A stretch of DNA of 64,000 nt from positions 186,001-250,000 of the forward strand of contig NW_020845065.1 in the NCBI RefSeq assembly GCF_003704095.1, read 5' to 3'. The translations under genes were made by a program, and so were the position numbers. The notes below the pieces were generated by a model that was given only the letters and a program-made list of their open reading frames with translations, made no database searches and was not told the origin of the DNA. Positions 14,801 through 61,851 of the stretch are shown here, one piece after another (positions within the stretch are counted from its first letter, which is position 1; each line of letters starts with the position of its first letter). The stretch comes from Pocillopora damicornis. Taxonomy: Eukaryota.

Positions 14801-17800
14801 CTTTAGTTTAGACCAAAGGCTAATAGAAATTTATTTATTTACAAGTGTTTCCCCTTTCATGACATCCACCAGAATAAATCGTTACAACTGGAGAAGAAAA
14901 TTAGAGAAATGGAGGATGACAAGAAAGATCCTGGTAAAATGTTCTTTTTTTAATTTTTTCAAAATTATTCCCAGCTAGTGCCTGTTAAGTTATAGAGTCA
15001 AACCTATTTTTGCTAGGACACAACCCTCTTTTGGTTGGACAAGTATCCATTACATCATATCTAAATAAACCCCCCCCCCCCCCCCTTTCATTAAACAAGT
15101 ACTTTTACCATGCTTCTTTTGTACGTACAGCCTTGAACTCAATGCAGAAAAAGTGATACAGCCATATTTAAAACCTGAACTTAGCTCAGAGTTAAATTCT
15201 TCCTCATTCCTTCCATCATTGATGCATCTTTGTATGTGCTGATCATTTCAGATGAGGAACAACAAAAAGTGCTCATGGATTTGGAAATAACAAGAAAAAA
15301 TCTCCAGGTGTGTTACAGATTGTTGTGAACTTGTGAACTAGGAAAAAAATCCTCATCAGAGATATTGTTCATGTATAAATTTCCATTTTTCTTTGAATGA
15401 AGGAGTCTACTACAAACCTCAAAGAAGCTCTTCAGGAAAGAGATGATTTGACAGATGCATGTGCTGACCTTAAGCAGCAAATGGCTGAGGTATGCTAGTC
15501 ATGATTACAAACCTTTGCATCTAGGTTGTACATAACTTAAACTTTAAGTTTTTCCCAACTGTAGCATCAGTTCTCTAATTCGATCATTTTTCCTTTCTTT
15601 TTCAGATGGTCGCAGAATTTGATGAAGACAAAAGGAACAGTTTAGAAAAGTACTTCTGCACTTTGATTTTGAACTATGATTGTTAGGGAACAAGTTATGT
15701 ACAGAATCTGCACCAGAAGAGTGGGATTTGTTCTAGTGATGTTCCATTTTTGTAATTTCCCCTTTGATTTCTTATTGGACAGCCAGGACCAGGCTGTTGA
15801 AAGCTGGGCCAAGACAACCCAACTTAGTGTTAAATCTGATTTCAGATTTGAAAGCTTTAAAAGAAAATTTAGTAGCATTCGTTTTGATCACAATTTGATG
15901 ATTGGATGCCCTACTAAGAATAAAGGAAATTATTCGAAAAAGGCTATTGAACAAAGGTTTAGAAACCCGGATTAAAATTCAACCCTAGGTTAGCGCCAAT
16001 TGGACCTCGAACAACCAGGCCCAGAACCCCTAATTTGCATAATTCTGATTGATTTATTATTTTAAAGAAAGGCCTAAAACACAAATACATGAGTCTTAAA
16101 CAGTTCACTTATAATAGAGTAGGTATTCACCGACCATCACACTGATTGACTCAATGACAGATGACTCACTGACATTGACGGATTGATTGACTGTCTCACT
16201 GACTGGTTTGCTGGTTGGCTGGCTGAGAGACAGACAACCGGATACAGTATGCTCAGACATATGTTAACTGCTCAGACGCATTTTATATGCTCAGACGCAA
16301 GGTAGTCAGACGCGCATATACGATTTTCTGCGCGAACGGACCCAAAAAATGCGCGAATCATGTGCCTTTGTTATTCAGAGCTGTAAGGTTTCCCTTCTGT
16401 AGGCAGACTGACTGAATGAGTTACTGATTTATAAGTGAGTGATTGATAAGCTTCTCAACTTAATTTTAGATGCAGAGAAGCTTGCTTACAGCTTCATGAG
16501 GATGCTAAAAACTTGCTGAGAGATCAGTTGAGCCAAGAATATGAACAAAAAATCCACGAGTTGAAGTATGTTTATTTGGTGGCCTACTATTGTATCTCTT
16601 TCACTTTAATTTACTAAATGTGCACGTGTTGCTGTCCCCTATGAGAATGTTTCTGCATTATTTATAACTGCACACTCTCCTAAACGTTGTTTAAAAGGTC
16701 AATTTTACATTTGAGGTATATAAATCATCGCTCAAAAGTAAGTTGATAGTCCCTCAATCCTTCATCCTCAATCCTCGAAAACTTCGAGGATCGAGGCTCT
16801 AGTCGAGTCTCGTTTTGAGACTTTCGAGGCGGGAAAACTAAGGAATTTTCGCGCTATTAATTTTTCACAGGACAAGGTTCTTACATGTATCTTTGGTACC
16901 AAAATCAAAACCTTACTACATGCACAAAATTCCTCTCCGTTCTTATCAGTCAAAGTCATTTTAATAATCTGGTGCTATTAAATAAACACTCAAAGGAATC
17001 TTTTTTTTAGGAAAGAGTTGGAAGAAAACAGTGAGGAGTTAATCAGGATTAAGGAATGCTATGTGCAGCTGGGCGAGGAAAGCCGCGAATTGGAACGGAA
17101 AATGAAGGATGAATTTGAGAAGGAGAAACAGTTGTTATTTTCCGAGGTGAGAGGGAAGTCACGTGTTGGGTTTTAATGCAATTCAAGATGAAATATCGTA
17201 GAGTTTTACAGGTAATAGGACTCAGTGGAGTCCAATTTGGTCTGAAATGAAGTGAGTGACTGACAATGGAAATTCGGAGGACTGCGTAGTGGGAGTCTGA
17301 TTTGCTTAACCCGAGTATTATTGGAGACAGAATTGGACGAAACGAAACACTATTACCAATTTATCAAAACTATGACAGAATTTGAGAGAAAGAACATAGT
17401 TAACCCTTTAATCCCTGCAAGTGACCAGCATCTAATTTCTCTTTTCAGTATTAAGGTCATGAGAATAAAGGAAATGATAATCAACTGAAGAACCTCTTGA
17501 TTGTTAAACAAATTCTCCTTGCCAGGACATTAGGAAATGTTTAGATAACAGTATGGAGAATTTGCATACTGATGTTAGGGTGTAAAGGATTAAGGAACAT
17601 AAAAGTGAAAGTTTTCGGAACGAGAAATCGAACCCAATAGTGTATGTTACAGCGCGTGTACGTAACGCCTTATTTAATCTTCAAATTACTTGACTTGGAG
17701 GAACAACATAGCAATAAAATGTAGGAAAAGCAACTGCAAGAGTCTAGAATTCAAAATTTTATGGGAAGCCCGGAAATTCTCCGGGACGAAAGGCTTCCCC

Positions 17801-20800
17801 GGGCCTTTAGAACTACTTGCCTGCTATTCGTAATTGACTACCAATTTATGCTATATTTTAATTGAAAGCCCTGTCTTGTGACTCTTGCTTCAGAATGAAG
17901 CCAAGCTAGAGAATGAATTGCGAGCCTCTCTTGAAAAGCAGCACGTGGAGCATCTGGAAAAGGCCAAAGATCAGTGGAAGAGAGAAGAGATGAAGCGAAT
18001 CAATGATGAAGTTATGAAACAGAAGGGACTGCTTCTAAAGGTTACCATTACTCTTCAGCTGTTTAAATAACACGTCCGAAATTGCATTACAAACAGAAAT
18101 CGAACTCCTGTCATTCCTGATCTTGCGGTCGAATACTTCTTTAACTTAGTAGCTGAGAACTCTTCGGCGAGCTGCCGTAGGCTATTCTCATTATGGTACA
18201 ACTTGGGTTCATTTGTGATAAATGTGGTGAGGTTGAGTGTTGTTAAAAGCAGTTTCTCCGAATTTAAAGTAATAATAATTTTGTTAGTTTGGACGCTTGG
18301 CGGTTCTAGTCGTGTATGAGCTCGAACTACCCGAGTAGATTTTTTCATGTGCTCGTTATTGTGAAGACGTTAGGACTTTAAATGAAAGGTTGAGTCGTGT
18401 TTCGATGTATTTATTAGAATAAATACAGATCGTTTTAACATCTACGTGCCAAGAAAGCGTATCTTGTTTTGCTGATTTTAATTTACCACTTGCAACTATA
18501 ACAGTTGAGAGCTATGCGTAGTTTTGGTCATTTTCTTGGAATTTTTTCTGAGATGTTCAGTGTTTTACTCTCAATGTGCAGAACATGACGGAAGCACAGT
18601 CCAAAGCAGTTGAGGAAGCTCTGTCAAAAGCTCGTATGGAATGGAACAGTGAGCAATCTTCTATCATTGCTGATGAAATAGCTACGGCCAAGAGAGAATG
18701 GATGAAGGATCAGAACGATGAGTTAGAGAAACGTTTAGCTAATGCCATCGAAGAAGTGAGACGAATCTGGGACGAAGAACAAAAGCTGAAAACAAAGGAG
18801 GTATCAGTATCAATGGTGAATTATGTCACGATACAGAAACACCTCGGTAAACTCCAGGTGGCATTTGTATTTTCACGTTAGTAAAGTTCAATTTCGTACA
18901 CCAGCCCAGTGGCCTACACCACCGGAACTTATTTCAGTCTTCATGGCGAGGGGATTTTGCTTCCCCTGAAGTGAATGCTAGTCGATCGAAGGCAACCAAT
19001 CCCCCCTTTCGTTTCCGTGCTACGTCGGTTTCGCATATCAGTTTCGTGGGTACTGGAAACCCTTGAGCGCTTTAAGATTTAAGGCCTTACTCAACCTAAC
19101 CAAAGGCCAGGCTGCTTAAACGAAGATTAGTGTAGGCCAGGTTTGAAATGAATTTTTGATGTGGTTTTGTAGCATTGCAGAGAGTGTTATTTCTTATGTT
19201 GTGTAGTTCGTTGGAAAAGAAACTTCACTGGACGTTTGCCTCAATATGCGATATTATGCATGAAATTTAAACCTAGTTACAACTTTTGTACTGGATTAAC
19301 GATATACTTCTTTCGGAAATTTCTGTCAATTACTAATAAAGTTAAGTGAGAAGTTTACGTTTCCCGTAGATATCAGAAACTATCATGATTATTTCCTTCC
19401 TGCTGATCCAGTTTAGTTTTTTTCAGGAGATGGTCAAAGTACGTGCAGAATTGGAGAAAGCACACGGAGCATCATGTGACCAACAACTTAACCAGGCAGT
19501 TGAACTGGCTCTGTCCCAAGCCCACGCGGACTGGCTGAAGAACGAGGAAGAAATGAGGCAGCGAGAGATTGATCAAGCTGTTGAGGTGGCCATAACTAAC
19601 GCAGTCGCCGAAGCTAAGAAGGAATGGCAGAAGGAGTTTGTAGCTCAAGTGAGTACTTTCAGAGTAACTGTCAACTGAATGTCGCTTTCTGTAGACTGAA
19701 AAAGGCATTAATGGTACGATTTCTCTCGAGCGCCTTCAATTGACCCCACAACTTTTCTCGAATATGCGTTTGCCGGCGAGCTTTCACAAATGTACACGAT
19801 CGTTTTGCAGGACAGCTTATTACAAACCTCTCTCGCTCAAGAAAGGCACCGGTGGAAGAAGGAAGAGGAATCGGTGAGAGCTAAAGCGGTAGAAGCTGCT
19901 GTGGCTATTGCTGAAGTGAAGTGGTTAGAGGATGAACAGAAGAAAATCTCTGAAGCAGTGGAACAAGCCGTGAAGATGGCGAGGGAAACGTGGCAAGAGG
20001 AGAAGAAACGGGATATAGGTATAAATATGTATGGAAAAATGATAGTACATACACAAGGGGAAAAAATTGACAGGATGACAACGATACGTTGATTATATTT
20101 GCTACTACGCGTGTCACACACGACATAGTCATGGCCCACTCATCATGGAGTTCTCCGTAGCTCAGGGATGGTGCATTAGAGCGCAGAATCCGAAAGTTAT
20201 TTCCAGATCAAAATATTTTGCGCAGCGATCATAAGTTCCCTTAGATTTGCCTCACTTTGCAAACAGAACGTAGCAGGTATATCTGAGTGCTTGACTCATC
20301 TTTACTGTGTCCATCAAGTTTGTTGATCGTAGTATTGTTCACTGTATCTACAGCCATGGCAGTGGATTTGGCTAAACAAGAGTGGATGTCCAGGAAAGAA
20401 GATGAAGTGAACCTGGTCTTGGAGTCAGCCAGCTCTCAACTTGTCGAACAGTTTGAGCAGCAGAAGAAAGAGGCCGTGGAAAAAGCTGTTGGCGAGGCAC
20501 GGGTAAAGACAGCAGTTGTAACGCTTCTAAAATCATTCCACTACTCACCTTATCCCACCTGTTGTCGTAAAGCTTTACACAGTTTTTTCATAGTATTATT
20601 CAATGGTTGTTTCCTGCCAAATTATATCGAATTCCTCAGGAAGTGTTCCCGCTGAACTTTTGGTTGTTTCCCGTGTAATTTCGCCGCGTGTGTTTGTTTG
20701 TTTTCAGTCGGGAAAGCTGCTTTGAAATTGAAAAAAAAGAAAGAAAAAACCATCATCATTTTTATTTTGCTTTCCTTGCTTTTGCTTGCCCTCATATACA

Positions 20801-23800
20801 GTTTTCACACACGGTTGCTTGATCCAGTCTCTTCGCACTCGGTTTGTCAAAAGCTTTTATACTACATTATGGTAATGTTTCGTTTTTATTTCTATATTTA
20901 CAGTTGTTATGGGAGAGGCGATTGTCCGAGGAGAGAGCCTCAGAAATTGCTTCCATTAGGGAAGAAATCTTCAGAGAATTTGAAGAACAAAAGAAAGCGG
21001 AAATTATGGAAACCTTGGAAGAAGCAAAGGAAGCATGGATGGAGGAATCTGAGGAACAGAAGCGTGAGGAAGTAAACGAAGCTATGGCTTACCTAGAGTC
21101 CGAATACAATAAGAATTTAGAAGAGTTCAAACATAAGACATTGAGAGATGCTCTCGAGCAAGCCAGGAAGCAGTGGACTACTGAAGAACTTTCACATCGA
21201 GAGGAGATTCTCAAGGTGAATGTCGTAAGTTGTGTAAACCACATCAAGGGGGAAAAATTACGAGCTCGTGCTCTGAGGTTTTTAGATTATGGAGAAAACA
21301 AGATTGTTTTGATGAAGAGGGAGGTCCTTTTCTTGTCGAAGTATTTATTCTCCTCTCCGAACTGCTCCAAGCTCTCTGAGCATGCCCTTTAGCATGAGCC
21401 TTGTGGAACGCGAGCCGGAGAGAGGCCTGCTAGGGGTCTGGCATGGAAATTTACGCTTCGTTTTTAATGCCAGACCCCACCTAAACTGCCCCGCTCTTAT
21501 CTCAAATCTTCCCGCGGGTGGAGAAACGCGCGACCTGCAGCACCTACTTGCCCGTGGGCTATATCCGAAAACGAATAGTTTATGCACGTAACAAATTTAG
21601 CCTAAATTCTTCATTTACAATTCATTTTAACTCTTTTATATCCTCAGCCATCTATGTTCCTTCTTTTACTTTTATTCTCTTTTTTTTTTTATATTTCTTT
21701 CATTTTTTGTTCTCTTCTAAGTTTAAAGTAGATCTTATTTTCTCACAACGTAAAAAAATACTTAGAAAAGAACTAATTGGTGAAGCTAAGAGGACGACAT
21801 AAAATTTAGAGCGCTTTGAATCGGTTTAGAAGAGAGGAGTCTCGTTCATCTATGAAAAAGTCTAAGAGTTTGACCGGAAACTTTCCTTAGGCTCGTATAT
21901 TAGCAGCTCAAGAAGACTGGCGCAAAGAAATTGCCAAGTCTACCCAGGAAGAGATTGACCGAGCCTTGTCCACTGCCAGGAAGGCCTGGGCCGTTAAAGC
22001 TGATGAAAAATTTGAGAATCGTGTCAGGGAAATAGAGGCAAATGTGCGACAACAGCTGGAGGCTAAAATCCAAGAAGAAAACAAAAAAAATATAAATGAA
22101 GCACTTCGGGAAGCAGAGGAAAGGTTTAGCTGCGAAAAAAGGAAATTAGAAGAAAACTTTAAGCAAAAGGTGAGCTTACTGTTGTGCGCAGACGCGCCGG
22201 TGTTAGTTTGCTTCTACTTTTGTCAAAATCAATATTTTTATGTATCTTGTGGTTAGACCTTTATCTTTCACGATTTTCTCCTGTCTAGAAATATTATTAG
22301 AGGCTCTCAAAAAGTTGTCAAATCCCTTGAATACAATTAGACGAACATAGCAGAGAAGACATCCTGCTCTTGTCCACAATTCACGTTGCTGCGCTAATTA
22401 CTCTCGTTGCTTTTTAACTTTCCTTAGATCGATGACTCTTCACGCCGTCAATGGGAAGATGAGAAGGCTCGTTTGTCGAAAGAACAACAAAACCATCTTG
22501 AACGCATGCGCAGTGAGTACGAATCCAAGTTGGCTGATCAGCGTGCTAAGATTGAGAGGGATCTGGGCGTGAGAATGAGAGGCGAAGTAGAGAAGGCAAG
22601 AAGTGATTTGAATAAAGAACAACAGGATTTAAGGTTAGTTAAGTTAACAATGGACCAGTGTTGTCCATTATTAATTCATTATAATTTGACAATGGACCGG
22701 TGTTGTTTAATATTAAGTCATTGTAATTTAACAATGGACCAGTCTTGTTTAATATTAAATCATTGTAATTTAACAACGGATCAGTGTTGTTTATTATAAG
22801 TTTATTTAGCTTTGAGCTGCCTGTGATTTGTGGAAGATGCGATGGCCTTGTGCTCAGCTCTCCGTACTCTTCATTGAAAAGTTCGAGTTTGAAAGCTGAC
22901 CATGTCATTGTGTTGAGTTTTCACGATGTCTCTCTCTACCCATGAGTACAAATGGTTACCAGAAAACTGTCAGGCTATCTGCCATTGTCCAGCTTCGTGT
23001 TTAGTTACTCTGTGTTTTGGAAACCGATAGAAGCTTTGGGAGAAATGGGCCAATCTTTATTAGTTACACCAATGCTTTCCAAATTCTTACCATAAATCCT
23101 TTTTAGGGCCCAACTGGATAAACAGTATGAACAGAAAGCGAGAAAAGCGTTAGAAAACGCAAGAATTCAGTGGGAAAAACAACAGCAACAAGAGATCACC
23201 AAAAGTAACGAGGACGCTGTGAAGCGACAGCAGGAGTTGTGGGCAAACGAGAGACGGGAAAACCTGTCTACCATGGAGAACATGAAACACGAGCTAGCCG
23301 CGGTCAAGAAGGAATACGCCATGGCAATAGAGAAACTAAAGAGGGAGATGGCAGAGGAGAAAAAGAAAACTCAGCACAGCATGAAACGGCGAGACTCAAG
23401 GGATATTGCTGCTCAGGTAAGCTGAATTATGTGTTGTGAAAAAAAAAAGTGAACAGATGAGTTTAAAGACATTTTTTATACGACTCTCTTGAGCTTTTAC
23501 ACCCTAACATCAGTGTCCATTTTCTTTATACTGTTCTCCTTACATTTCTTAAGGTGTTTGTAAGGAGAATTTGTTCAACAGTCAAAGTCTTCTAGAGTTG
23601 ATTATCATTTCCTTTATTCTCGTAACCTTAATGTCTGAGTTAGGGTGTTATTGTTAGGAGAAATGAGGTGCCACTCATTCTTAGGGGTTAAGGGCTAAAT
23701 AAAAGTAGGAGTGCTTCTTAATAATTATTTGACATCTCAGGCTTAATATATTTTTATAAAATTTATATGTGTTTATCTTGTTGTTGTTCTTTTGAGGTCT

Positions 23801-36129: not shown

Positions 36130-38193
36130 TTACAACAAACGGGCCCTGACAAGGCTCAGTAGAGTACTTGTTACCGTGACAGGAACACTCGCAAGTATTT
36201 CAAAACCTTTCCCGCCTCGCGCTCCTTTCACCGGACCTTCATTTCCCTCAGTGATGGTAATGTTTCCCTCGGGGCAGAAATCCCCCTCACAACAACTCAT
36301 CTGACAAACGTTGTAAGCGAGTGATTTCTCGCCGTAGTGTTCCGCAAAATGGCCCGAACATAGCTCGAACACACACTCATCTTGAGATGCGCAGCCCCTC
36401 TGAAAACCTGTCTGATTTTCTCCGAGCAATGTGACGAAAACTTGAACAGTCATGTTACGGCAGCGATCTGTTGGCTTTGGACATTCGGTCTTCTTCATGA
36501 ATTGAACACAATCCTCCATGGATACAAGAGAAGTACATTCATAGCACTCGGTGGACATGGCTGATGGAAAGAAAGACAATTTGATTGGTTATATCAACTG
36601 AGTGGCCACCGCTCTGACGAAGAAGAAGTGACTTTTAAAGGTGGCCAATTTACTTTATCAACTCAGTTGATAAGACAAAATTTCTTCTAATACCCTCTAA
36701 CGACTGAAACTTTTTAGGAAACTTACCCTTCATTCATTTGATGGAAAAAGTCCGAAAATACTGAAAGAGCCAGAACTGATACAGTTTCAATTTATGTATT
36801 TAATATCGTCAAGTGAATTACGAGACAAAACAGGCCGGTCACTTTATGATTTCTCTTTTAAATATTTATAGCCTTGTCATAAGGACGTGTCAAACGATAG
36901 TGACAAAATCATATTCAGGGCGGAGTGTTGGCTTCCTTCCTATAAGAAACTATAAGTGGTTAACCGCGTGTGAGGGTTTCAAACTGCAAATTTTCGGGAT
37001 TTCAATGAAATATAACGGAAAGTTCCTTGCTTTCAACACCACTAAACAGGGGTAGCATTAGCTTTTTCTGTGTAACTTTCTCATTGTGTGTTCAACGAAA
37101 CGCAAAATCTTCAATTTCTTTATTTGTTTGGACGACTTTCGGTTTCTGCTTTGTTTTTCTGGGTCACATCAACTGTCTGACTTGTCTCTAGGGCTCAAAA
37201 CCGCCATGAACGTGACAAAATATGCCTTAAGCAAACACGGTCGAACACAAGGTTTGACAAATTTTATAGTAGATTGGTTATCTTACAGAAAAAGTTAATC
37301 ACATCACCGAGTATCGAAGTATTCAAGAAATTTTCTCTCGATTCCTAGGCCTATTCAGAAAAATTATTGTCTTTAGTGACCCAACACTTTAAAAACATTG
37401 CTAATTAATGCACTGTTTGCATGTGGATTTGAACCAAACGAATAGAAATGTAAATTGTCGTAAACTTCTTGTGTACGAAGAGATTTTTTTGCCAACTGAT
37501 GTTTTAATCTCTTCTCAGCGAAAAAGAGTCAAAATCTTGATAAAGATTCCAAGAAAAAACGTAAGTACTTCTAGGTATACCATTTTCCTTTCAGGAAATT
37601 TTTCAAAGTGGTAAAATATCACACAACCTATATAGCGCTGCAATACTAGTTAATATTTCTTTTATTAAAATTCATGGTGACGAAGGCGCAACAATATCTC
37701 ATTGCGGATAGAATTTTACACCAATTTTTTGTCAGAAATAGCGAAAATCAACCGCAGTATGATGCCGAAAGATCCATCGTTTTACGGTCATGTTGTTTTA
37801 ACTCAAAGATGTTTTTAATTTCGAACAGTTGAAAAATAGGTTGTGACAAAGAGTTTCAACATTCAACGTAAACATCATCACCCGCAATACCAAATCATAA
37901 TTCAAACTGGGCACTAAGTCACTTCGATTAAAACTTGTCATCGATCGAAATTTCGACAAGCGTTGTGAAATTTATCAACCAGGCTTAAAATCACCGAAGT
38001 TTGCTCGGGAAATCGGACTAAATTTGAATGTCAAACGATTCACTCCTCAGTCATTGTTATAAATCATAACATCGCACTGTACAATTTATATTTCGCAACA
38101 ATTTAGGACACAAAAACATTCAACCAGAAGAGAACACTCACCAAATGGAGTTGAATATAAAACAAAGAGTGCTCCCAAGGCTATCCTCAGCAT
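36130..38193 (-). CDS. Ly6/uPAR (three-finger) GPI-anchored protein B, 160 aa, 12 Cys
   Basis: Signal exon 38193-38142 (MLRIALGALFVLYSTPF, G|GTGAGT) joined to 36560-36130: TECYEC...EDC...TEC...DRC...FQRGC...DEC...ELC...NVCQMSCCEGDFCP, then a Gly-rich spacer and a hydrophobic C-terminus. Confidence 0.87.
36610..36732 (+). repeat. Second, deleted copy of the hammerhead-bearing repeat, in the intron of gene B
   Basis: CGCTCTGACGAAG core is intact but stem II and GAAA are missing; same downstream body as 34339-34440. Confidence 0.55.
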
Positions 38194-41672: not shown

Positions 41673-43648
41673 TTAAAAAGGCAGTGAAGTTAGCAAGAGA
41701 AATATTGATAGCAATACGAAAATTTTATGTTTCCTCATTAGTCGACCACCATTAGTGCTTCCGATTTCTAGTTGTATATTAGTTTTTGGCTCGAATTCGA
41801 AGCACTTTTTTGAAGTTTTCCGTCCAGATGATGTCGGTATAATTTTACGGGTGCTTGATTTATTCAAATCTAGTGTTCCTACACGATGGTTGCAACGATC
41901 AGTGGCACAGCATTCCGGGCGGCAGCTGGGCTCTACAAGTAGCCCGGGCCTCTCTCTCCACAGGTGAGTTTTGATATCTCTGCAGGGCTGGAGCGAGTAA
42001 CATTCTCTTTTCGACGAACATTGCCTAAAGATGGAAAACAATTACGCTGCATTATGTTTGGAGATGAAGGGTTTTGACAATGTTATGTACATGAGCTTAT
42101 CCCAGTTTCTGAATGAATGAAGCGACTAGAAATATTGCCATGCTGGCCTCCGGAAGAAATGCCAATCAATGGTAGGCTATCCGGTTGTAACATATGACCA
42201 GGATTCCCCAAAATGTTTTCGATTACCCAGTGGTGAAGAGAGACAGTGTTAGGGTAAAGCGTCCTGCTCACGAACTGTTTCTTTCTACTCTGTCCAAGTA
42301 ATGATTTTAGTTTTTAGAGCGGCGAGGGTACCAAAATAAGTGGCAAATTTACGGGAGGGGCCGGGGAAGGAAGTTGCTCTTTTTCGTGGTTCCTTCCTCT
42401 TTGTTTTCATTAAGTGCCCAAAACACCGCCAGTTTCGCAGATAAGATCGAACCCGGATGTTTAATCTTGAGTTTTAGCGCGCTCAGTATTAGGTAACCAC
42501 TCCCTCACTGATCACTTGTGGTTGGGAGATGAGAATCCTGGAGGTTCTTCTTCTGCAGCAGTAAGGTCTAAATTGCTACTTGAAGGGAAAAGGTAGCATA
42601 TTAAGTTGCGAGTAGCTGGTTCTAGTGCATCATACCTTAAGAACAAATTTGACTTGTTTCCCTTTAAATCTGTCACCGAGGCATTAATACTCATGCAAAC
42701 TGACTCGCTACCTTGTGAGCAGCTCTCAATACTGGAATTTCTCAGACAATTGAATGCTAACAAGGTGGCATTACACTGATGGCATTCTAACGATCTTGTT
42801 CCCTTGATTGTGGCTTTAAATTAAAGAAAAGAAAATTTAAAAAGTGTGAGAAACAGCGAGGAAACAAAGAAACCGGCACTGTTCATTTTCAGACAGATTT
42901 CATCAAACTGACTGGTGCTGGCTTGCATTTCTATCTCATCTATACACTTCAGCTAAGCCTCAGTTGTAATTTGTTACGTAAGAAATAACAGGCAACTTTG
43001 AGCTCTCCAGTTAAATGGCTTATGAAAATGACGTTTATTATTCGATATAAAACGTCAGAACAGAATAATTCAATGAAATGTTGTAATAAAATCTTCTGTC
43101 GGCTTCCCACGGAGGACGAGGCTCAACATTTTGACGAATATATCGTCCGTCCTCCCTTCCTCCGGAAGGAAACGCCGATTATAAACTAATGATAAAAGTA
43201 TAAAATACGACTGCAAAATAAAAGACAGTATGAAATTCTGTGTACTATAGGAAAAAAATCAATACTTTTTAAATAGCATTTTGCTGTACCAGGTTACAAA
43301 CTTGATGATGCAGCGTCGGAGATCATACATTTTTAATACAAAGCTGACAAAATTTAAGCGTCAATCAAATGTGGTTTTTTCTTGTCCCTTAATTTTAGCT
43401 TAAACCGAACACGTTTGCGCAAAAATTTTGCTAAGAAGATCAACCTAACGATAATTTGTAGATTTGGTGCGCAAATGACCTTTCCACGATGATTACACGC
43501 TCATGGAAACGATGATAGACTTCGCACAAGTAAGCTTAGTAACGCATTGAACTTGTTAATCACAATTATATTACGTTTGGAAAATTTCGATCAAAATCAA
43601 ATCCTTACCTGTTGTTAGAATAACGAGTGTTAGAAAATGAGGATCCAT
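41673..43648 (-). CDS. Ly6/uPAR (three-finger) GPI-anchored protein C, 189 aa, 12 Cys plus one stalk Cys, 3 coding exons
   Basis: Exons 43648-43609, 42813-42636 and 42024-41673 (phases 1 and 2). MDPHFLTLVILTTATIKGTRS-LECHQC...FNC...ESC...SVC...FLRQC...REC...QPC...PSCRPECCATDRCN; omega-like NGG then KIFVLLSIFLLLTSLPF. A splice acceptor 12 nt upstream of the ATG implies an additional 5' exon. Confidence 0.87.
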
Positions 43649-47484: not shown

Positions 47485-49310
47485 TTAACTGATGTAACTT
47501 ATCTCTAAAATGTTCCAAAGAGCTAAAGAGACTATTGTAATTCCCGAAGTGCTTAAGCCAAAAGTTGTGGATGGGCTTCCAGACCGGACAGTAGTATATT
47601 TTGGAGAGGCTGTTGATTCTTGGTTATTCATGTCTTTAGTGGGAATCTTGTTATCAGTTGTGGTTGCGATTGTAGCTAGTGTTGTAGATGGTGTTGTAGG
47701 TGGTGGACCATTGCAGTAATCCTTATCGCAAGAGGAAATTGAACAATTATACACAGGTCTTGACTTGTTTATTGTTTCGCAGTATCCGTTGATAAAAAAT
47801 GGTGGTAAGCAAGTTTTTGAGTAGGTATGTTCGTTGTTCGAGTGCGAAAATATTGCTGTGGTACAAAGGTGCTTGGCAGCTTTACACGAGGTTAGATTTT
47901 GGTTATTGTTACATTCATTCTCAGAACCTGCGGCACATTGATAGCAGAGAAGAGTATTTCCTGTGGAAGAAAAAAAGAGATGTCATAAGATTTATAAGCA
48001 GAAGAGGAGACACAACACAGGTGCATGTCCATCAGAAATGTGTTAAGTTGGTACTTTTGTGATGCACACAAGCCTACTAAACGAGACTGCAAAACTTTCA
48101 TAACGGTACTATGACCGTGTGAACCAAAGCAAACTTTGACCCGAGAAAGGAGACAGTGTGACTATTTTATTTCGAGATATTCATAAGATTCCCCACATTT
48201 TAATACCATTCAACACTTAATCAATTTTATTTCGTAAGAGTAAGAGACCGCAAGAGTTTGTAAATCACAAGTCGGAGACGAGTGATTTGCAAACGTTTCG
48301 AGTGTTCTTCAAACATCCCGCTTGAGTTATTACATCAGTAAACCAATAGAAAGTTCATTTCAGACACAAGTTACGCTACTTTACTCGTGGAATATTAAGA
48401 AGCACGTGATCGAAGGATCAAGCACGTACTGGTCTGATATAACATTAAATCCCCTTTAAAAGGAAATCAAGCTTATCTACGTAGCAAGGTGAAGATAATT
48501 GAATCAGCTTTACTCTTTCCTTCTTCATTTTGTCAATTAAACCCTAAGGTTACCCATGTCAAGCTTAAGTCGTTACTCATCTCTGTACGGTATGGCTTTC
48601 TCTTGGACCATTGTCTGAGATCGTGTTTCGTAAGCCTCGTGTTTCAGAGTTCTTTCATTCTACCAAAATTTTCCGGCCTAAATTCATACTCATTACAAAA
48701 TCAGCGCACGGAAATTTGCAACTTCTTATTAATTCTCTGTTTCTCAAAATAAAGAGAAACCAAACACCTCAAATCACATGCCATTGTTGGGTTATGTCAA
48801 AGTCACGCTGAAATGAAATCGTTGATAGGTGAACCTAATCCTGACCTTTCGACTTACACTGACTAGAATTCCTTATTTAGTCGCAATCTACTCAGTGAAT
48901 AAATGGCTAACTCAAAGGCAAATTTTGTTGGCCTTTAGGGTGTAACAATCGTGGATATTTACCCTCAATAACTCGAGTTCCCTACAATAAATAAACTCAT
49001 GCCTTTAGTCATCAGTCTCTGGAAATATGAGTTATAGTCCTTTCTTCGAGTGTTTTTTAAATGAATAGCGACCACAAATTGCTTTCATTTGACATGAATG
49101 AGACATTTTCTCAAAGGTCGAGGAGACCTTGCCTTCATACTTATACAAGCGTTCACAAAAAACGATTGCTACATTGAAATCAGCCGGTAATAGCAACAAT
49201 AACGTCACAATTTGAATTACTTAAAATCATGAATATATCGACTCACCACAACGACAGAATGCTAACAACAGTGTACAACTCAAAAGCGCCACACATAAAT
49301 TCAGCGTCAT
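47485..49310 (-). CDS. Ly6/uPAR (three-finger) GPI-anchored protein D, 179 aa, 10 Cys, with a mucin-like Thr/Ser/Pro stalk
   Basis: Signal exon 49310-49247 (MTLNLCVALLSCTLLLAFCRC, G|GTGAGT) joined to 47960-47485: GNTLLCYQCAAGSENECNNNQNLTSCKAAKHLCTTAIFSHSNNEHTYSKTCLPPFFINGYCETINKSRPVYNCSISSCDKDYCNGPPPTTPSTT..., ending in a hydrophobic tail. Confidence 0.87.
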
Positions 49311-52300
49311 TCTCGTATAGGTTATCGAAGATGTCTCTCTTGCACGTCAAAGATAAACTAGCTGAAGGTCCGATAACGACGTGGTTTTTATCCAAGTGAA
49401 CGTGGAAATGTGTCAGCGATTCACCTCCGCTGTGTGTGTCAACAACCGCACCTCAGAATTATGACGTTTGCGAATATGAGATGTCTCACGTTTCGATGCC
49501 GGAATTTAGACCATGATTAATAGCAATAAGTAGATTTCTGTTGTCGATCGGGTAAAGGTAAAATTTCATATGTTTTAAAGTTGAGGTTGTGATGGAGGGG
49601 CGGTGTTTGATTTTTATTTTTCATCACGATTACCAGTGACTGGATTCCTTCGCTCACTGTTTACTTTGACATTCTTTGCTAAAATGTGTTACGTCGGTTT
49701 CGGAAACAAAACAAAGAATTGGGATGACCAGATATCACAGATAATTAAGTGGAGGAGGTGATTGGAGGGCCAAGCTTATATTGAATTACTCTCGTTTGCC
49801 GAAGTTCTCTCAAGAAAGAATATTTTATTTGCTACTCCAGATGCTAATAACCTATGCTGGTGTTGTTAACTCGGAGTTCACGTGTCACGCACCGGATAGC
49901 GCACTCACTGGAGAACTGCACAGAAGTTTCCACCGGCAAAATTACATAGCAAAGTATTATAAAACAGCCTATTTATCAAGAAAACACCAATTCAGAGCAA
50001 TATCGGCGCGGAAATGAGAATAGATCAAGAAATTTCCCTGCAGATTACGTATGTATACATACTTTCAACGCCGTAAGAATCAGTGGTACGTCACTCCCAC
50101 AGGAAACAGCAGCGGACAAATAGCATGGAACGAACCGTGGGAAGGTTCACGAGTTCGTTCCACATCCTTCCAGATTTATCTCGAAGCCAAAAATAAACTT
50201 GATCCTTCATAATTGTGATTCAAACTTTAAAATTTTTACTATTGCCAAAAAAAGAATGCAATCATATCCTGTATGTAGATCACGCTGAAAAAGGACTGAA
50301 AAATCTAACAATTCTGAAGCGTATAATCGGTCTTTGGATTTTCTGTATTTTTGTCAATTACTGCCATTCGGTCCGCCATTTTGATTAATCATTACTGGAG
50401 ATGGAGTAGTGTTTATCTTGTGACGTAACATGCAGAAGCAGGTCCGTGATCAGGCCTGGTCCGTGATAAAAAGCCACAAATTGTTCATACGTCATGATAA
50501 GTTGATTTACTATATAAGGCATTCTTGCATCCTGGCAATTTGTCTCCATGATTTGAAATTTTATTACTCTTGACTTATCATCATCTTTATTGATCCGGAA
50601 ATGAGTGATAAAGATTTTTACACGGTTTAAACAATGGTTTTCAATTTGCTTTAATCCAACATGTGTCACCTAAACGCCACAACACCATACTTAACAAAGA
50701 ATTTTTATTTCATTTTATCGTTTATTAAGTTGTCCCAGACAACATTGCAATAAGGAAGACAAATCATGGATACTGTTGTAAACCTAAGATTTAGCAACTG
50801 TTTGGCCGCGCTTAAAATATTTGGGACAAAAGAGGCTCTTTGGGGTGGGGAATTTTGCGGCCCCATCTCATGGCTCAGTACTCTTCCCAGATCCTCTCTT
50901 CAAAGGACCTTCAGACTTAAGAGTTCAGCAATATTTTTTAAAACGACAAACAGTTTATCATAAACTGATAATGTCAGTAATAATTTCACTCTTTGCAGCC
51001 TTGTTAGTTGGCATTAATTTAATTTTCTCTCGGCTGCCGAATGACTATCAGTGTTTCAAAATAAATCAATTGAATTGCGTGCTTCATTCCTTGGTAATCA
51101 TTTCCGCAGCTGTCACCTAATGTAACTTGTCCAGTGGGTTTTTTTAGACTCGTTAACTTTGTATGGGGTCCTCGCATCAAACTCTGGGCGGCAAACACGT
51201 TATCAATCTATGTCACGCATATTTCAATTTCGTCCCCTTTCGTTTTCGATGGAAAAATAACCTGGTTTGTTAGAGAAGGTCTCCTGGTCAAAAATTTCCA
51301 ATTCTTATGGAATATTCAGAAATTAAGTTTAATTAATTTAAAAACTATCCGAAGATCTTAACAGACCGCCGTTAGCACACGCTTCAAGTGTCTGATATGG
51401 AACTATAGTCAGAACATGTTTGTTTCGCTGATTGAATAACATATTTTCAATTTTTTTTCCTTTCATTAATGGTTCTTTGTGGACTACGGATATTGTTTAA
51501 GTGGATTAAAAAAGCGACAGTTACGGTGCATTGGTTAAGAATAATGTGTACTTGACTAAAGAATCGAAAACATCCGCACATTTATTTGCATAAAGCAAGC
51601 GACATGTTTTAGAATCTGAAAGGCCAGTACAGACAAACTTGAACTGAGCTGAAAGCCTTTGGTCGGCACTACTGAAAGAAATATTTGATATTGACGTGTT
51701 GTTTGTGTCTATTTAAAGCATTATTAGTTTAAGTTAATAGAGAAGGGCCTTGTTTTTTTCTCGGTATCTCCGACGAATTCCTGTTGGTAAAAGTTTCATT
51801 TTAACTTAAACCTTTGAATTTGATTTTATTTAGACTGCTCACCTTCTGGAAGAAGAACGAAGATCACATAAATTGTCGCTAATCGGAAAATGGACCCCTT
51901 CAGCCGCATTCTGGTAATGTTATTTAGCGAGAACGCGAAACTTGTGCAACGTTGTGCTGCAAATAGTAAGAACTGTCGGCTGTCACTCTATGAGCTTCAA
52001 TGCGGTGTGATGACATTTAAATTCAAGAAGCATGGAATTTGATTGGTCAACTTTTTTGAGACGTAATGGGCCACTCAATTCATTAGCTCAATATTATGTG
52101 GATTCCTCGAAACAAAAGTCATTCTCGATTCCACATAATTTAAGAATTATGTGGAATCCATCAGTTTCATTCAAAACTGATAGAGAGAACGACAACAAAA
52201 CTTCGCAAATAAACAATGAATACTGTAAATAGTGACTTTTTTTAGAGTACAGCTGACAGAATTACTGCAATACATTGCAGTAATTGACAACCGATTAGCA

Positions 52301-53169
52301 TCTCCTGGCAATATCTTGATGAAAAAAAAAAAAAAAAAAAAACTTTAACGTACGAAATTGGGGTTGGCTTATATCGAGACGGTTCATGGAGAGGACGTCC
52401 TCGAACCCTCCTGCCTGATCCCCATGTGATACTCTGATGATCTCCCCTTGTTAACAGTTACTTAGCAGTCATTTTTCTATAGCTCACTCCTTTATACTCT
52501 TCTAGCCACGACTGATCCCCCAAATGTTCTGCCCCACGCGAAAAATATTTACTGATCCTTAAGCTGCGATTAAGTGATTGCCGAAAAGGAAAGAGACGTG
52601 AAAACATTAAGGCTTCGACTAGATTCGAACCCGACAATTAAATTAGTCCTTCTTTCAATGCAAATCGTAATCCGTCCGACGACTAAATTTGAAAAAGGAA
52701 ACCAGCAATCATATTTATCTATTATGTACATATTAGAGAAATACCGGAATATTTCCTGTTTCAAAAATATGATACTCATTCTCATGGTTGGCGGGTTAGC
52801 CGGGTTCTTTATTCTCAATTACCAACATCTATTGTTTTAAATTTATCTTATATTAATTCTAAGAATAATACATATTTTCATAATTAGAACATGTTTTATA
52901 TTTTTGTCAGATGTTGCAGTAGCTCTTCTGCGGGATCAATTTACGTGCGACGGTAGATAACCATGGCCTTTAATTTTGATTTTTTGAAATGACATTCCTG
53001 TAACTCTTACAGGTGGATATAAAGCGCTTATGCGAATGGGGACAGAACCGTAAACACAAATCCCCGTTAAAGGAGTCATTTGAGGGCTGCGAAGTACTCT
53101 TTTATACAGTTACCCAAAGTTACGTTAAAAGAAACAAAATAGGAGCCGAAAGGGGAATGAATTATCATT

Positions 53170-55965
53170 TCACTGTTCAGTGAGGGTCTTATGCTGGATG
53201 AGGCGGTGGATACGGCAGCTGCATATTCTCTTTGTTGCAATCTTAGCCTCTTGGTAGAAGCTTGGAAAGGAAAAGGCACACACTATACTGAATATTATGG
53301 TCTGCCCATAAATCAGCAACCGAGGAATAAAGAAGAAAATGATCCGGCTTCCAGGCCACAATTCAAAGTTTCCACCCGCGATCTCGGTAAGCCGCGCTGG
53401 ACTGGTACAGATAAAAATGGTCGTAGCAAGTGTAAGGCAAATCCTGCGCAATTTCATCTTGGTTTGGCCATTGTGGTCATCTGGGTCTGGGGGTAGGAGT
53501 GTAAAATTATCTTTCGTTAGAATGCTGTTTAAAAAAACTGGTATTGAAAAAAAAATGCCAGAATAAGTGGAGCTGGGCTTAAAAGTTTTTGTTGTAGTCA
53601 TTGCTTTCACTACTCTATCCATTAAATTGATTTACTGAGATGGAAAAAAAATACGAATCTGATTGATTGTGGCCTCATCAAACTAGTAATGAAAATCAAG
53701 CTGGTGAGATGATACTCCAGAAATGGCTGGTTCCGGGTCGCCTTTGTTTGACAATCACTTTATCCCACAAAAATATTAAATCAAAAGGTTAAATTTGCGC
53801 GCAAGTCTTATGACCCCAAAGGCTTTTCCTAGTTTTCTGAATGATGCGTAAGTGAGTGGATTGTTACTACTTCCCCTTCCCCCTTTCCAGGGAAGAATGC
53901 ACAGGTCATTACCAGGCATTCTGTCGGATGTCCCTTGCGTATCCAGCCGGTTACACATTTTTACTTCTGACTGAAGAAATGCATGGGTCTGGCCTGTACC
54001 TGAAACTTGCCTTCTTTCGACCAAGACCTCACTGCGGTAACAACTAAGCTGGTACGCACCTCAATCCCCGGAGCTTAATTTGTGTAAACATTGAGTAAGA
54101 TCGCGCGAAGATCTTTTTCGAGTCAAAGTGATAAGCTACATTTATTCTTACCAGCTTTGTCAAGGGCTTCATAGTCTGGGTGCACACCAAACTTATTGCA
54201 GTAAAAGCAAACCGTCACCAGAGGCAAGATGGCCACGTACAGGTATTCAGTCCACTGAAACACTGGCATTCGACCCAAGCTGTTGTTTATCAGTGTGCAG
54301 CGTGTGCACCTCCCAGGTATCCTTACTAGGGAGGTGAACAGCAAGGGGAACGCAAACACCAATGACATAACCCAGTTGGTTGTACAGGAAGAGGGCTGGG
54401 TAGGAAACCCAAATGGGGTATAAGCATCGCGCGCCATATTCATGATGTGGGTTGCTATGGCAATGTAAATCGCACGTTCGACAAAAAAGTGCAAGCTGGA
54501 AATGAAATGCAAAGAAATTAAGTTTTAGTTATTTAGTAATTCACTGGAAGTCGACGTTTGGTTTTCCTCCGATTAAAGATGGTTTGAATCGCAATATTTC
54601 TATCAGAACATGAGAAGGTGTAAGTGAAACATGCCGCGGCTGTTCTGAGCAGAAGCATACGATTTTTCAACCAAATGTCTTACAGAAAAGGGAATCTTCG
54701 GCNNNNNNNNNNNNNNNNNNNNNNNNNNNNNNNNNNNNNNNNNNNNNNNNNNNNNNNNNNNNCCCCCCCCCCCCACCCTTCCCAATGAAGGGAAGCTTAG
54801 TTGTTCACATAATTATTCAATCCGTTGAGGCACCAAAGTGTATATTTCCGTTTTTTACGAGGTCTCACTCGGTTCCTGTCTTTGAATGTGTTTTTTGAGG
54901 AAGCTACGTGGTAATTTTCTGCAGAGATTTCTCGCTACGACGTTAATTCACTTCCAGCTAAATCGTAAACCCCTTTTATCAGTAAAACACAACAGTCGAG
55001 TCACAGAAGCGGAAACGATGATAAATATTTAGACAAGCTGTGTTCACTTTGTATCCTCCAAAAGCGAGACAATTGCTATTCAGTCTTAATGTTTTCCAGC
55101 ATTTTCTTTCATATCCATTCTACACGCAGAGAATCATTTATGCTTACTATAATTTGGCCTTTAATAAAAATGCAAATTTTCGAGCTCGCACGAAAATTGG
55201 ATCGCTTCTTTCGTCATTTGCCAATCAGGAAGAAATATTGCTTCCACCTTGAAGATGCCACAGTGTTCACAAAATTTGGTTCATAAAACTGGACGAACAA
55301 AAACTGCTGTTTATTTTTGTACAAAAAAATATTTGTAAAAGTAAGGAAAAAGTAAAAAGAGAAAAACGCACACGCGAAAAAAACTCATTATAAATCCTGG
55401 TCAGTGACTGAATAGCCGAGGTTGGCGAATTGTCTCAGTCACATTTACGGATTCATATCTTAGAAGAGACAAAGTGAAATAAAAGCGAAACTTTCTAAAG
55501 TTGAATTTAAATGGGAGGCATTGAGAGGAATTCAGCATAACTGAACAAGAACACTTTTGGTCAAGTTACTTTGAAAGTAGATTGAAGTTATCAGATCGAG
55601 TGTGCGGAAAGTTAAGGGTTGCGTCTCCAAACTGATTAAAACTCTTTGACTTACTTGCAGGAATACTCCCCAAAAAACCAAGATCCATTTGTTGTGAAGC
55701 TGATGATATCAAAGGGCATTCTGACCATAAGGATCAAGTTTGCAATGGAGCAGTGAAGCAGATAGTCATTGCAGTTCTTGCTGTAGGATTTGGAATTATT
55801 TCCTGTCTTACAACTCAGCAAAATGAACAAAATATTGCTTGCAAAACCTACTAAGAATATGACAAAAAATATCAGAAATTCCAAAAACAAGAATTGACCA
55901 CACATCATGGTTGACTTGACGGGGGAATTGGGTGACGAAGATGAAGAAGCTGTTTCTGTTGACAT
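53170..55965 (-). CDS. Divergent rhodopsin-like (class A) GPCR, ~323 aa, 3 coding exons
   Basis: Exons 55965-55655, 54495-54152 and 53486(or 53480)-53170, phases 2 and 1, with no stops. Seven hydrophobic segments; VGFASN (TM1), ANL..MPF (TM2), WFFGEYSC (ECL1/C3.25), W-VMSLVFAFP (TM4), ECL2 Cys, LPL (TM5), FICTSP (TM6), helix-8 Phe (PSF). The layout resembles peptide receptors. Confidence 0.85.
54703..54761. other. Assembly gap (59 N) in GPCR intron 1
   Basis: Run of N next to a poly-C tract. Confidence 1.
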
Positions 55966-56581
55966 CTTTCAGCAAATAAAAATGAAGCAGTCTTTGTGAT
56001 CGCAAAACAATAAACAATTTTCCTTTAAATTTTAATCTGAAAAAGGCAAATCCACAAATTAAAAAGTCTGTATCAGATAATAGGTTTGCCGAGCCGAGTT
56101 AATTTTATTGATAAACGGCATTGGTAAGTTTGGGTGAACATCTGTTTGGTGACACATATTCATTGATTCGGCCTAAATTGATTCTTTCTCAGACAAACAG
56201 GTGCGAGCGCCTGGTGACGAGTGCAGAGCGCGAAAGTCTATGAGGAAAAGAAGAAAAAGTGTTTTCTTAAAATCCATCCAATATTTTTGCTCGCCTACGA
56301 TTGGTCTATATGTATCGAATATGTCTCAGCAAAACCATGGGTTTTTCACGGGTATAATCAAAGTGATATTCCCCAATTTCCCCTTAGTACCCTACGTTAA
56401 AAGTGTTCGTTTAAAATTCAATTCAAGGTGAGAGAACGTTTACATATTCTTACAGAACGTGTTTGTTTGTCCATACAGTCGTAACAGAGAACTCTGAAAA
56501 GTAAACATCCCACGCAGCAAACAATAAATTGTTCGTCGACATTTCAACTGCGCGTTGCAAAGATATTTCAATATTTCAAAC

Positions 56582-56751
56582 ACAATAGCCTCCATTTAGC
56601 GCAAAAATATTCTCTTCTATTGTCCTTGGGTATTCTTTAAGCTCTCATTTTCTCTTGAACCTCGTTCTCGGAAAACTGTTCGCATCTCAGAAAAGGTGAG
56701 GTCCGCAGACAAATATCTGTGCATATTTTCGCACCAAATAGAAGCTATTGT
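56582..56751. mobile_element. MITE-like element with ~29-bp imperfect terminal inverted repeats
   Basis: ACAATAGCCTCCATTTAGCGCAAAAATAT ... ATATTTTCGCACCAAATAGAAGCTATTGT. Confidence 0.7.
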
Positions 56752-59567: not shown

Positions 59568-61851
59568 ATGGCGAATTTGACCTGTTCAAATCGGGGCCGA
59601 GGCAAAATTATTATTTTGTTTCCGTTACTCTTAATGTTTTTTCTCCCTAAAGGTAAGTTTAATCGAATGCTTAAACCGAAACATACGCGTCGTTCTGATC
59701 TATATTCGACAAAACTTTATATTACGCGTCAGAAAGATTAGTAAAAATCTAAAAGACAACAAATACAATTACAAACGTTGGCGAGGTTTGTGTGTTCACC
59801 GGACACAGGAACTAATGTGCAAGCCTGATGCTTTGAAAAAAAACTCAATGAATTCCAATTCTTTTAACAATCAATCGACGACAGGATAAAATCCTTAGAA
59901 GAGAAGAAATTAGTTTCACTCATTCCAGTTTAAATGTTTTAACTGACATATGTAATTAGAGACGATGAGACAACCGCGCTCAAAGAAATCAGTATCTTTT
60001 AAATGCATATTAAATCTCTCTTGTCATTTCTTTTTTAAGTATTCATTCTCAATAATTCCAATTTTACTTTGAACTGGTTCAAAAATATTAATTTACTTAT
60101 CTCAACACTATTCCGATCACTCGGAGACTTAACTCGTTGAACCAAGGCAGCCATCTCTGTTCTTAAATTAAAGCGTACAAATTCTATAACAAAAATTTCA
60201 GAGACCCTCAAGCAAGACAGGGTAAGAACTAAGTAAATACCTCACGAAATTGACGGATGACCGCCAGAAACCTGCGGTGTCGCTCTATGAAGCTATCATG
60301 AATGTCTACCTTGCTAAGTCAGGTATTTGTGAGGGCTTTGAGGTTTCAGAGCATCAAAACAAGTATAGTGACGCCGCAAGAGGATTATGTGTGAAGAGAA
60401 AATTGAGTTTTCCCCGTTTCGTGGTTGGTGCAACTTAAATTCTTTTGTTAAGTATTACACGTAAAATGAAAATGAGTAGATAACTAACATGATATACTCG
60501 TTTACTGGAAAAATAAAACCGTAAGTTTCCTATTCAGCTCATCTTATCACCAAAGCTTCTTAAGAAATCTACAGATTTAATTCCTTTACTTTACTTCTTC
60601 TGTCCTTTTCTGTTTCTAAAAATTTGATTTGACTCCGAAAATCCAAGCAGAAATTAAAAACGACAAAGTTTTCCATCACGATGGATTATCTGACTTCAGT
60701 TTTGTGGTGCATAGGTACAACGTAAAGATTTTAATCAGTCTTATAACTGGTTTTACTAACATTTTAATTCTTACGGATGATAATCTGAAAAATCAATAAT
60801 ATTATCGTTATTCGCCTCGAGCTAAAATAACCATGTGGTAAAAACACAAAATTTAATTTTTCCTTTCTTAGAATCACGTCTATAATAAGGCGAAGGACTG
60901 TTTCTCATACTAGCAAAATTAAGAAGAAGCGAGTTTTTATTTTCGTTTTCATATGCCTTCTAGACATACCAAAGCAAAAACAAAGTTACAGGGGGCTTAT
61001 TAAATCTCTCTTCTCAAAAAGCCAGATGGTAAAAGGGATTTATTCAAAGTGATTTTAGCGAAAGCAAGAAAAACATACACCCCTCCAATGATTTTCAGGC
61101 CATTTTCGCTATTGTGTGGCGCGTGCTCCATCAATATTCATTTCAAATTTAACGCCAGTAAGTCTTAATAAGTCCCGATGTATCACGACATGTTAATCCA
61201 TTTATAAAACCTTTCACGCGCAGCGTACGAGTTTCCCAATAAGGTAGAGCCATCAGAAAGTTAAGAAGAAACCACTATGTTTGGCAATAATATTGCCTGT
61301 AAACTCCATCATCATTATCATCTTTGTCATCATTATTATCAGCAGTGGTAGAAGTAGGAGTAGTGCATATTTCAACGTAACGCTCAGACATCGAATTAGC
61401 TAAGCCAAGCAAAAAACAGCTTTCGTTAACAGCCTCCTCAGACACAAAATTAATATCGTTATCATCATAATTTATATCTTTTTTAGCATTTAGCCTACGA
61501 TGTAACGTCTGCGAAAGCGGAGAGTCATGGGAAAACTGCGACAGAAACATGACGATAAAAGAGTGTACCGCACAAGAAGGGAGATGCGTCAAATATGACT
61601 ATCACGTGACATACGATAACACTACCATGCCACAATCGAAGCGTTTTCAACGTGATTGTTTGCCTCCAGCCCAGTGCTCTAGCAGTACACTTCAAGCTTG
61701 TAGAGACCTCGAGAAGCCTGGTATCCCGATGAAAGTAACGTGTCACGTGTCATGTTGTGCCGAAGACTCTTGCAATTCTCAAGTAAAGACAAGTGCCTCT
61801 GTTCTAGTAATGATTATCATTCTTCTAACTGGGGCCACCTTTCAAATTTAA
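59568..61851 (+). CDS. Ly6/uPAR (three-finger) GPI-anchored protein E, 149 aa, 12 Cys
   Basis: Signal exon 59568-59652 (MANLTCSNRGRGKIIILFPLLLMFFLPK, AAG|GTAAGT) joined to 61487-61851: AFSLRCNVC...ENC...KEC...GRC...FQRDCLPPAQC...QAC...VTCHVSCCAEDSCN, followed directly by a GPI signal. Confidence 0.9.

Follow-up and report, generated by a model that had tools for sequence, protein, structure and literature searches.

A stretch of 64,000 nucleotides of the Pocillopora damicornis genome (contig NW_020845065.1, positions 186,001 to 250,000; hereafter the window) harbors, on its minus strand, a gene for a predicted class A G-protein-coupled receptor (GPCR) whose canonical activation switches are replaced. 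The gene has three exons, runs from a start codon at 55965 to a stop at 53170, and its 972 coding nucleotides specify 323 residues identical to an uncharacterised P. damicornis protein (P0004 in the protein collection). In generic receptor numbering, coding exon 1 (55655..55965) extends from Met1 to C3.25 and covers the N-terminus, transmembrane helix (TM) 1 with N1.50, TM2 with Asn at 2.50, P2.58 and D2.60, and the WxFG loop; alone it matches Pfam 7tm_1 with an E-value of 1.4e-4, and its GT donor lies at 55654. Intron 1 (54496..55654, GT..AG, phase 2) includes a 60-N assembly gap. Coding exon 2 (54152..54495) supplies TM3, a short intracellular loop 2 (ICL2) with the motif PFGFP, a shortened TM4, the Cys of extracellular loop 2 (ECL2), TM5 and the start of an acidic ICL3. 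Intron 2 (53487..54151, 665 nt, GT..AG, phase 1) precedes coding exon 3 (53170..53486), which holds the remainder of ICL3, TM6, TM7, helix 8, a short C-tail and the TGA stop. The last 145 nt of intron 2 continue the frame of exon 3 without a stop, yet they are non-coding, the segment being absent from P0004.

An unbroken reading frame with good splice sites had been proposed by an earlier sequence-only reading of the locus, and RNA contigs agree with it at both junctions. Eight of 23 listed runs were examined (five RNA, two guessed RNA and one of undefined kind). Junction 1 occurs in five of the seven RNA or guessed-RNA runs (X1, X5, X7, X6, X9; four studies), and junction 2 (53486/54152) in two of them (X7, X6; two studies), with short sides of 66 and 24 nt, the latter in X6. 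Depths over the gene are low. All indels listed in the eight runs are intronic, including 1-nt indels at 53531 and 53546 in one run. An orthologous locus (L044) has its introns at the same places, and metagenome contigs of another coral (L041, L042) carry an intronless frame across both junction sites. For the last acceptor, every AG between 54146 and 53382 was tested by translating through it. A stop codon in the required phase follows the AG at 53634, strong though it looks, as it does others that lie upstream of 53612; acceptors at 53612, 53609, 53603, 53537, 53510 and 53480 keep the frame, but the RNA contigs and P0004 use 53486. The 153-residue stop-to-stop frame 53631-53173 was likewise rejected as continuous exon, 53487-53631 being intron. 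When P0004 was searched against its own genome, only the three window exons passed E 1e-6 (58 candidates scored), so that the gene is single-copy in this search. Plus-strand contigs with GT..AG splices run antisense to all three exons, joining 51888-51913 to 53013-53572 (a loose end in X3) and 54057-54242 to 55661-55947 (X2). Each joint is seen in one contig, contigs from X5 and X9 also start at 53012, there is no long frame, and this overlapping RNA is likely an antisense non-coding transcript. Part of the coverage of exon 3 therefore comes from the antisense strand, and it is the sense junctions that count as evidence of expression.

The protein is predicted to adopt the class A (rhodopsin-like) fold of seven helices plus helix 8, with ICL2 and TM4 shortened. 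Against Pfam 7tm_1 the whole protein scores 26.6 bits (E 5.2e-6), under the curated cut-off of 30.5. A profile of the receptor and its cnidarian relatives (the family) gives 46 matches among PDB sequences at E up to 0.01, class A receptors by name, led by MCHR1, CCR7, NTSR1 and the ghrelin receptor (E 4e-6 to 2e-5); an hhalign comparison with a profile built from 48 canonical receptors spans 308 columns (99.7%, E 3.4e-24). An AlphaFold model built from an alignment of 35 rows (24 family, 11 canonical), and biased by the canonical ones, has a predicted local distance difference test score (pLDDT) of 79.6, seven helices and helix 8, with a TM4 of just 17 residues. Its best structural match is the orexin receptor OX1R (Z 25.9, root-mean-square deviation 3.6 Å over 280 residues), and its Foldseek matches are peptide receptors, with 13-21% identity in the structural alignments. 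TM5 (180-208), TM6 (223-255) and helix 8 have normal predicted length in this model guided by canonical rows; a family-only model has the same helices at a pLDDT of 52.6, a low confidence too poor to use. An independent ESM Atlas model reaches a TM-score of about 0.8 to peptide receptors. The top ESM Atlas match of both P0004 and P0033 is a single 338-residue chordate cluster called 'OPSD protein (Fragment)' (0.97), which is without a common Pfam family and is a lead only; the hidden Markov model (HMM) search of the representative library gave no strong match corresponding to it. The anchors N1.50, C3.25, W4.50, P5.50 and P6.50 do not vary among the coral rows or in the sea anemone Actinia tenebrosa, and C170 of ECL2 is invariant too.

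Set against canonical receptors by hmmalign and hhalign, N76 falls at 2.50, D127-A128-Y129 at 3.49-3.51, C245-T246-S247-P248 at 6.47-6.50 and F284-S285-I-V-C288 at 7.49-7.53. The profile alignments thus confirm all four replacements previously noted (D2.50N, DRY to DAY, CWxP to CTSP, NPxxY to FSIVC), and no realignment with either program regains a motif. The loss goes further: with I117 at 3.39, A118 at 3.40, I242 at 6.44 and Q280 at 7.45, the residues S3.39, I3.40, F6.44 and N7.45 are also gone, so that none of nine switch positions is kept and all four residues of the sodium pocket (D2.50, S3.39, N7.45, N7.49) are replaced, by N, I, Q and F. The statement that every switch is replaced was right, even incomplete, in what it listed, but slightly too strong as worded, as D3.49, an aromatic at 3.51, C6.47, P6.50, P5.50 and a Tyr at 5.57 remain. 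The structural residues reported as kept (N1.50, C3.25, W4.50, P5.50, P6.50, F8.50) are indeed present, together with P2.58. Position 5.57, one residue from 5.58, holds Tyr202, and Actinia and nine of ten coral rows have a Tyr there; this residue may be a displaced Y5.58 or stand in for it. The numbering is anchored on P0004 because hmmalign left the C-terminal half partly unaligned in six of seven family rows; the register of TM7 is backed by relatives that keep P7.50 (Actinia, P0030) or Y7.53 (Orbicella, L047).

The altered codons and their conservation are as follows. The codon for N76, which replaces D2.50 of the sodium pocket, lies at 55738..55740, and Asn is found in 10/10 coral rows and Actinia. 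D-A-Y is encoded at 54420..54428; position 3.50, where R3.50 is lost, is A or T in 9/9 coral rows and S in Actinia. C-T-S-P, lacking W6.48, is encoded at 53398..53409: position 6.48 is T in eight of nine coral rows, V in one and Y in Actinia, and the R6.52 that follows is present in all rows. F-S-I-V-C, in place of NPxxY, is encoded at 53278..53292, with F7.49 in 9/9 coral rows and Actinia, and with C (7/9) or Y (2/9) at 7.53. The replacement residues N2.50, I3.39, A3.40, Q7.45 and F7.49 are themselves conserved.

Controls were taken from the same genome, in which 140 loci detected by 7tm_1, Srw, Srx or the query itself yield 131 distinct intronless frames of at least 280 residues. At least five of the nine switch positions are kept in 130 of these (the other, truncated in the alignment, keeps three), R3.50 in 130 and D2.50 in 129, in a set biased because the HMMs favour receptors that keep the motifs. 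A tandem group of intronless class A genes (L054, L056-L059, L062 and L063; G000 C317 and C3682) has M6.48, W7.45 and NPxxC; this coral family is altered at part of its switches and canonical in other respects. The short ICL2 of the earlier description is confirmed by the spacing from 3.50 to 4.50, which is 17 residues in seven of eight family sequences (14 in one) versus 21-30 in 43 canonical receptors, and lies 8-10 residues below the usual 25-27. The segment from 5.58 to 6.36 carries a net charge of 0 to -3 in six of six family members, versus at least +1 in 131/131 controls (median +6). Ser/Thr-rich tails are a feature of ACKR3-like arrestin-biased receptors; in the coral family the C-tail contains 1-4 Ser/Thr, which form no cluster.

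Named orthologues occur in P. verrucosa (99% identity), Oculina patagonica (two copies, 62-63%) and Orbicella faveolata (62%). The Oculina copies (P0002 and P0007; ACROYT_G007851 and G007853) are near-identical, have close locus numbers and are likely a recent tandem duplication or a haplotype duplicate. A search of the representative library yields 22 proteins with E-values no higher than 7e-10, separated by a gap from canonical receptors, which begin at 2.5e-6; the remaining library members are mostly exon fragments, and the rows are not all independent species. The full-length relative in Actinia (E 3.5e-28, 30% identity over 270 columns) has N2.50, KDSF, CYLP, F7.49, C7.53 and the same short PFGFP loop, and 30 columns are invariant from coral to anemone. 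Nearly all of the switch losses seen in Pocillopora recur in Oculina, Orbicella, other corals and Actinia; they are old and shared from stony corals to an anemone, and the orthologues that carry them are intact. In a FastTree phylogeny (141 sequences, 164 helix columns), five family members group as a single clade with support 0.999, whose stem, at 1.32, is the longest inner branch of the tree; this amounts to a single old burst of change and retention thereafter. The parent clade is not resolved (placement supports 0.34-0.89). Word-seeded searches gave four proteins from the query and nothing beyond itself from Actinia, and identified no member in Nematostella, Exaiptasia, octocorals, medusozoans or bilaterians, which is weak evidence given the method. 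In the literature, with subscription papers largely outside the search, no description of the family or of a cnidarian decoy GPCR was found, nor any mention of six accessions or locus identifiers of the family; clusters in the supplement of PMC11087051 may hold a Nematostella member. The gene is a real, ancient and undescribed variant of the atypical seven-transmembrane (7TM) receptor type.

Purifying selection acts on the sequence. Nei-Gojobori ratios of non-synonymous to synonymous substitution rates (dN/dS) between the window gene and six distant coral sequences are 0.21-0.31, with upper 95% bounds of at most 0.44 and dS of 0.87-1.30, near saturation; frames are open in all seven sequences compared and in Actinia. 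Within the protein, conservation is highest at the outer ligand pocket. In a comparison of four full-length coral sequences, identity is 74, 81 and 80% in the outer halves of TM5, TM6 and TM7 and 60, 48 and 56% in their inner halves, with 48% for ECL2, 50% for TM4 and 77% for ICL3. Positions 2.60, 3.32, 3.33, 5.39, 5.42, 6.52, 6.55, 7.39 and 7.43 line the class A ligand pocket. D2.60, R3.33, E5.42, R6.52 and Y7.43 are shared by corals and Actinia, with coral exceptions at 3.33 (1/7), 5.42 (2/10) and 7.43 (1/9). The inner loops PFGFP (ICL2) and HPDYE..DD (ICL3) are also strongly conserved. Sorting motifs (YxxPhi as YEAL, acidic dileucine) are seen by eye in some orthologues; they are not conserved in all and were not used as evidence.

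Among characterised receptors, canonical peptide receptors (MCHR1, CCR7, NTSR1, ghrelin, orexin, galanin) give the best sequence matches (E 4e-6 to 2e-5) and fold matches (Z about 25-26), and have N1.50, the C3.25-ECL2 Cys pair, W4.50, P5.50, P6.50 and helix 8 in common with the coral protein; they signal, however, through the switches that the coral family has lost. In that loss the coral receptor is like ACKR1/Duffy (DARC), which is described as being without most of DRY, CWxP, NPxxY and PIF, as having a short ICL2, and as scavenging or transcytosing chemokines with no coupling to G proteins, GRK or arrestin (PMC11349380). Table rows that the text of another paper assigns to DARC show changes at 2.50, 3.50, 5.58 and 7.53 (PMC3405870). 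DARC differs in its short TM5 and TM6 and its loss of F8.50, neither of which appears in the coral model guided by canonical rows, and it is absent among the 46 PDB sequence matches listed for the family profile. By no test made here does the coral receptor qualify as a member of the ACKR1/Duffy family. As to descent from chemokine receptors, CCR7 is one of many equally weak matches, and the placement in the tree is unsupported. Because chemokine receptors are described as bilaterian-specific (PMC11087051), the likeness to Duffy would be convergent and the ligand different. ACKR3, without G-protein coupling as is inferred for the coral family, shares a peptide-receptor-type class A fold with P2.58. 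It keeps DRY, D2.50, Y5.58 and NPxxY and recruits arrestin, whereas the coral family keeps none of DRY, D2.50 and NPxxY, and in ACKR3 the change Y7.53A nearly abolishes arrestin recruitment (PMC11287255). ACKR3 therefore serves badly as a model, even though the Actinia protein was automatically named 'atypical chemokine receptor 3-like', and of the atypical chemokine receptors invoked as precedents by the sequence-only reading, ACKR1/Duffy fits, but the group in general does not.

Given the observed gene structure, splicing, ancient motif loss and purifying selection, the explanation that fits best, by analogy, is an intact, spliced class A receptor that binds ligand, is uncoupled from G proteins and acts as a ligand sink or carrier convergent with ACKR1/Duffy; belief and doubt in it are about evenly balanced. 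The ligand would be polar, probably a peptide or a small protein, and held at D2.60, R3.33, E5.42, R6.52 and Y7.43 (plus E3.32 and R7.39 in corals). Its binding would open no G-protein cleft, because the sodium pocket, the PIF/toggle, R3.50 and the NPxxY relay are missing and ICL2 is short. The PFGFP loop and the acidic HPDYE..DD loop would instead dock a family-specific trafficking or scaffold partner. The kept pocket, the lost relay, the short ICL2 and the non-basic ICL3 together point to ligand binding without G-protein output. Of the three functions originally proposed, decoy or scavenger fits best, while arrestin bias is disfavoured. Several observations weigh against this reading. Loss of the motifs is no proof of uncoupling, and the premise that they are needed for G-protein activation was too strong, since herpesvirus ORF74 signals with DTW (PMC3405870) and the path by which TAS2R4 couples to gustducin involves neither DRY nor NPxxY (PMC13172528). 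The coral model, built from an alignment with canonical rows in it, does not predict the short TM5 and TM6 of Duffy. A rewired switch could draw on Y202 near 5.58, on D3.49 and on a basic residue at 3.48, all of them conserved; Actinia retains Y6.48 and P7.50; four of nine examined pocket residues (E3.32, Q5.39, E6.55, R7.39) are coral-specific and not found in Actinia; and the control set is skewed towards motif-keeping receptors. Among six close coral pairs dN/dS is 0.39-0.78, where three of the intervals extend beyond 1 and two reach 0.98, and exon differences among the contig rows listed (40/52), many of depth below 5, are 13 non-synonymous to 5 synonymous. Because dN/dS is low at long distance and higher among close pairs, and the contig differences are 13:5, constraint is real but moderate.

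Some of these points feed directly into a serious though unlikely alternative, in which the receptor still signals through G proteins, driven by ligand or constitutively, by a rewired path where Y5.57, R3.48/D3.49 and family-specific contacts replace DRY, CWxP and NPxxY. ORF74 and the TAS2Rs, functional without DRY and/or NPxxY, are its precedents, although TAS2Rs belong to a different class that has no C3.25 disulfide, and ORF74, a viral chemokine receptor, has lost the motifs only in part; the normal predicted length of TM5, TM6 and helix 8 and the conservation of the replacement residues are consistent with it, whereas the joint loss of nine switch positions, an ICL2 shortened by 8-10 residues and an ICL3 region without the basic charge present in all 131 controls argue against it. 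The conserved PFGFP and HPDYE loops of this single-copy gene, and the Ly6/uPAR-like genes flanking it both in the window and in the orthologous locus, could also suit an accessory 7TM subunit or scaffold, which would modulate another receptor or membrane protein by heterodimerisation, with its own ligand or none, the neighbouring Ly6/uPAR proteins being possible partners. GPR50 is the model for such a role. We consider it quite improbable, as conservation peaks in the outer ligand pocket and not on the lipid-facing TM4 (50% identity), and gene neighbourhood in animals seldom means binding. Arrestin bias of the ACKR3 kind is unlikely, and we give it very little credence: the Actinia name is an automatic similarity label, and although the acidic ICL3 could mimic phosphorylation, ACKR3 keeps DRY, D2.50, Y5.58 and Y7.53 and needs Y7.53 and ICL2 to recruit arrestin (PMC11287255), while the coral proteins have DAY, C7.53 in 7/9 rows and C-tails poor in Ser/Thr. 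That the gene is a decaying or nearly neutral relic is hardly credible. The score under the Pfam cut-off, the dN/dS of up to 0.78 among close corals, the 13:5 ratio in low-depth contigs and the low RNA depths would agree with decay, but open frames from corals to Actinia, no exon indel listed in eight runs, dN/dS of 0.21-0.31 over long distances and the 30 invariant columns speak against it. The original inference of selective loss with the fold retained, rather than random decay, is supported by the shared substitutions, by these long-distance dN/dS values (not near 1), by splicing and by a fold predicted twice.

A more specific version of the sink or carrier reading is tentative, and we lean somewhat against it: a hexacorallian class A receptor free of transducers, arisen independently of vertebrates and long before chemokines, which would scavenge a neuropeptide or small secreted protein, or carry it by transcytosis, in a Duffy-like manner, with the G-protein face swapped for a docking surface of acidic ICL3 and PFGFP. 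The ligand-scavenging 7TM receptors without G-protein coupling in the literature used are vertebrate (the atypical chemokine receptors). If the reading is true, this would be an invertebrate decoy GPCR shaping peptide gradients, a case for which the literature searches gave no report, and the complete switch loss from corals to anemones would mean that cnidarians came to the same design on their own; a sink could be of use to their volume-transmitted peptide signalling. For GPCR biophysics the family would further provide a natural, long-selected test of whether the class A switches are needed for coupling. Such receptors would escape deorphanisation screens based on G proteins; a Nematostella peptide library and coupling assays exist (PMC11087051).

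The receptor gene lies within a cluster of genes resembling Ly6/uPAR (three-finger) proteins, several with hydrophobic C-termini suggesting glycosylphosphatidylinositol anchors. Three of five such frames in the window match a Ly6/uPAR Pfam family, one over the cut-off (47488-47982, minus strand) and two below it (36133-36588, minus strand; 61471-61848, plus strand); the other two (32621-33148, plus strand; 41676-42041, minus strand) have a similar Cys pattern and no Pfam match. In the orthologous locus a Ly6-like frame (L044:1242-1805, plus strand) lies 1.7 kb upstream of the receptor orthologue. Elsewhere in the window, 11343-25800 on the plus strand holds exons of a large coiled-coil, Glu/Lys-rich protein; three frames were scanned against Pfam, and none gave a convincing match. 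A short repeated element occupies 56270-56600, where many contigs from several runs match and then continue into unrelated sequence.

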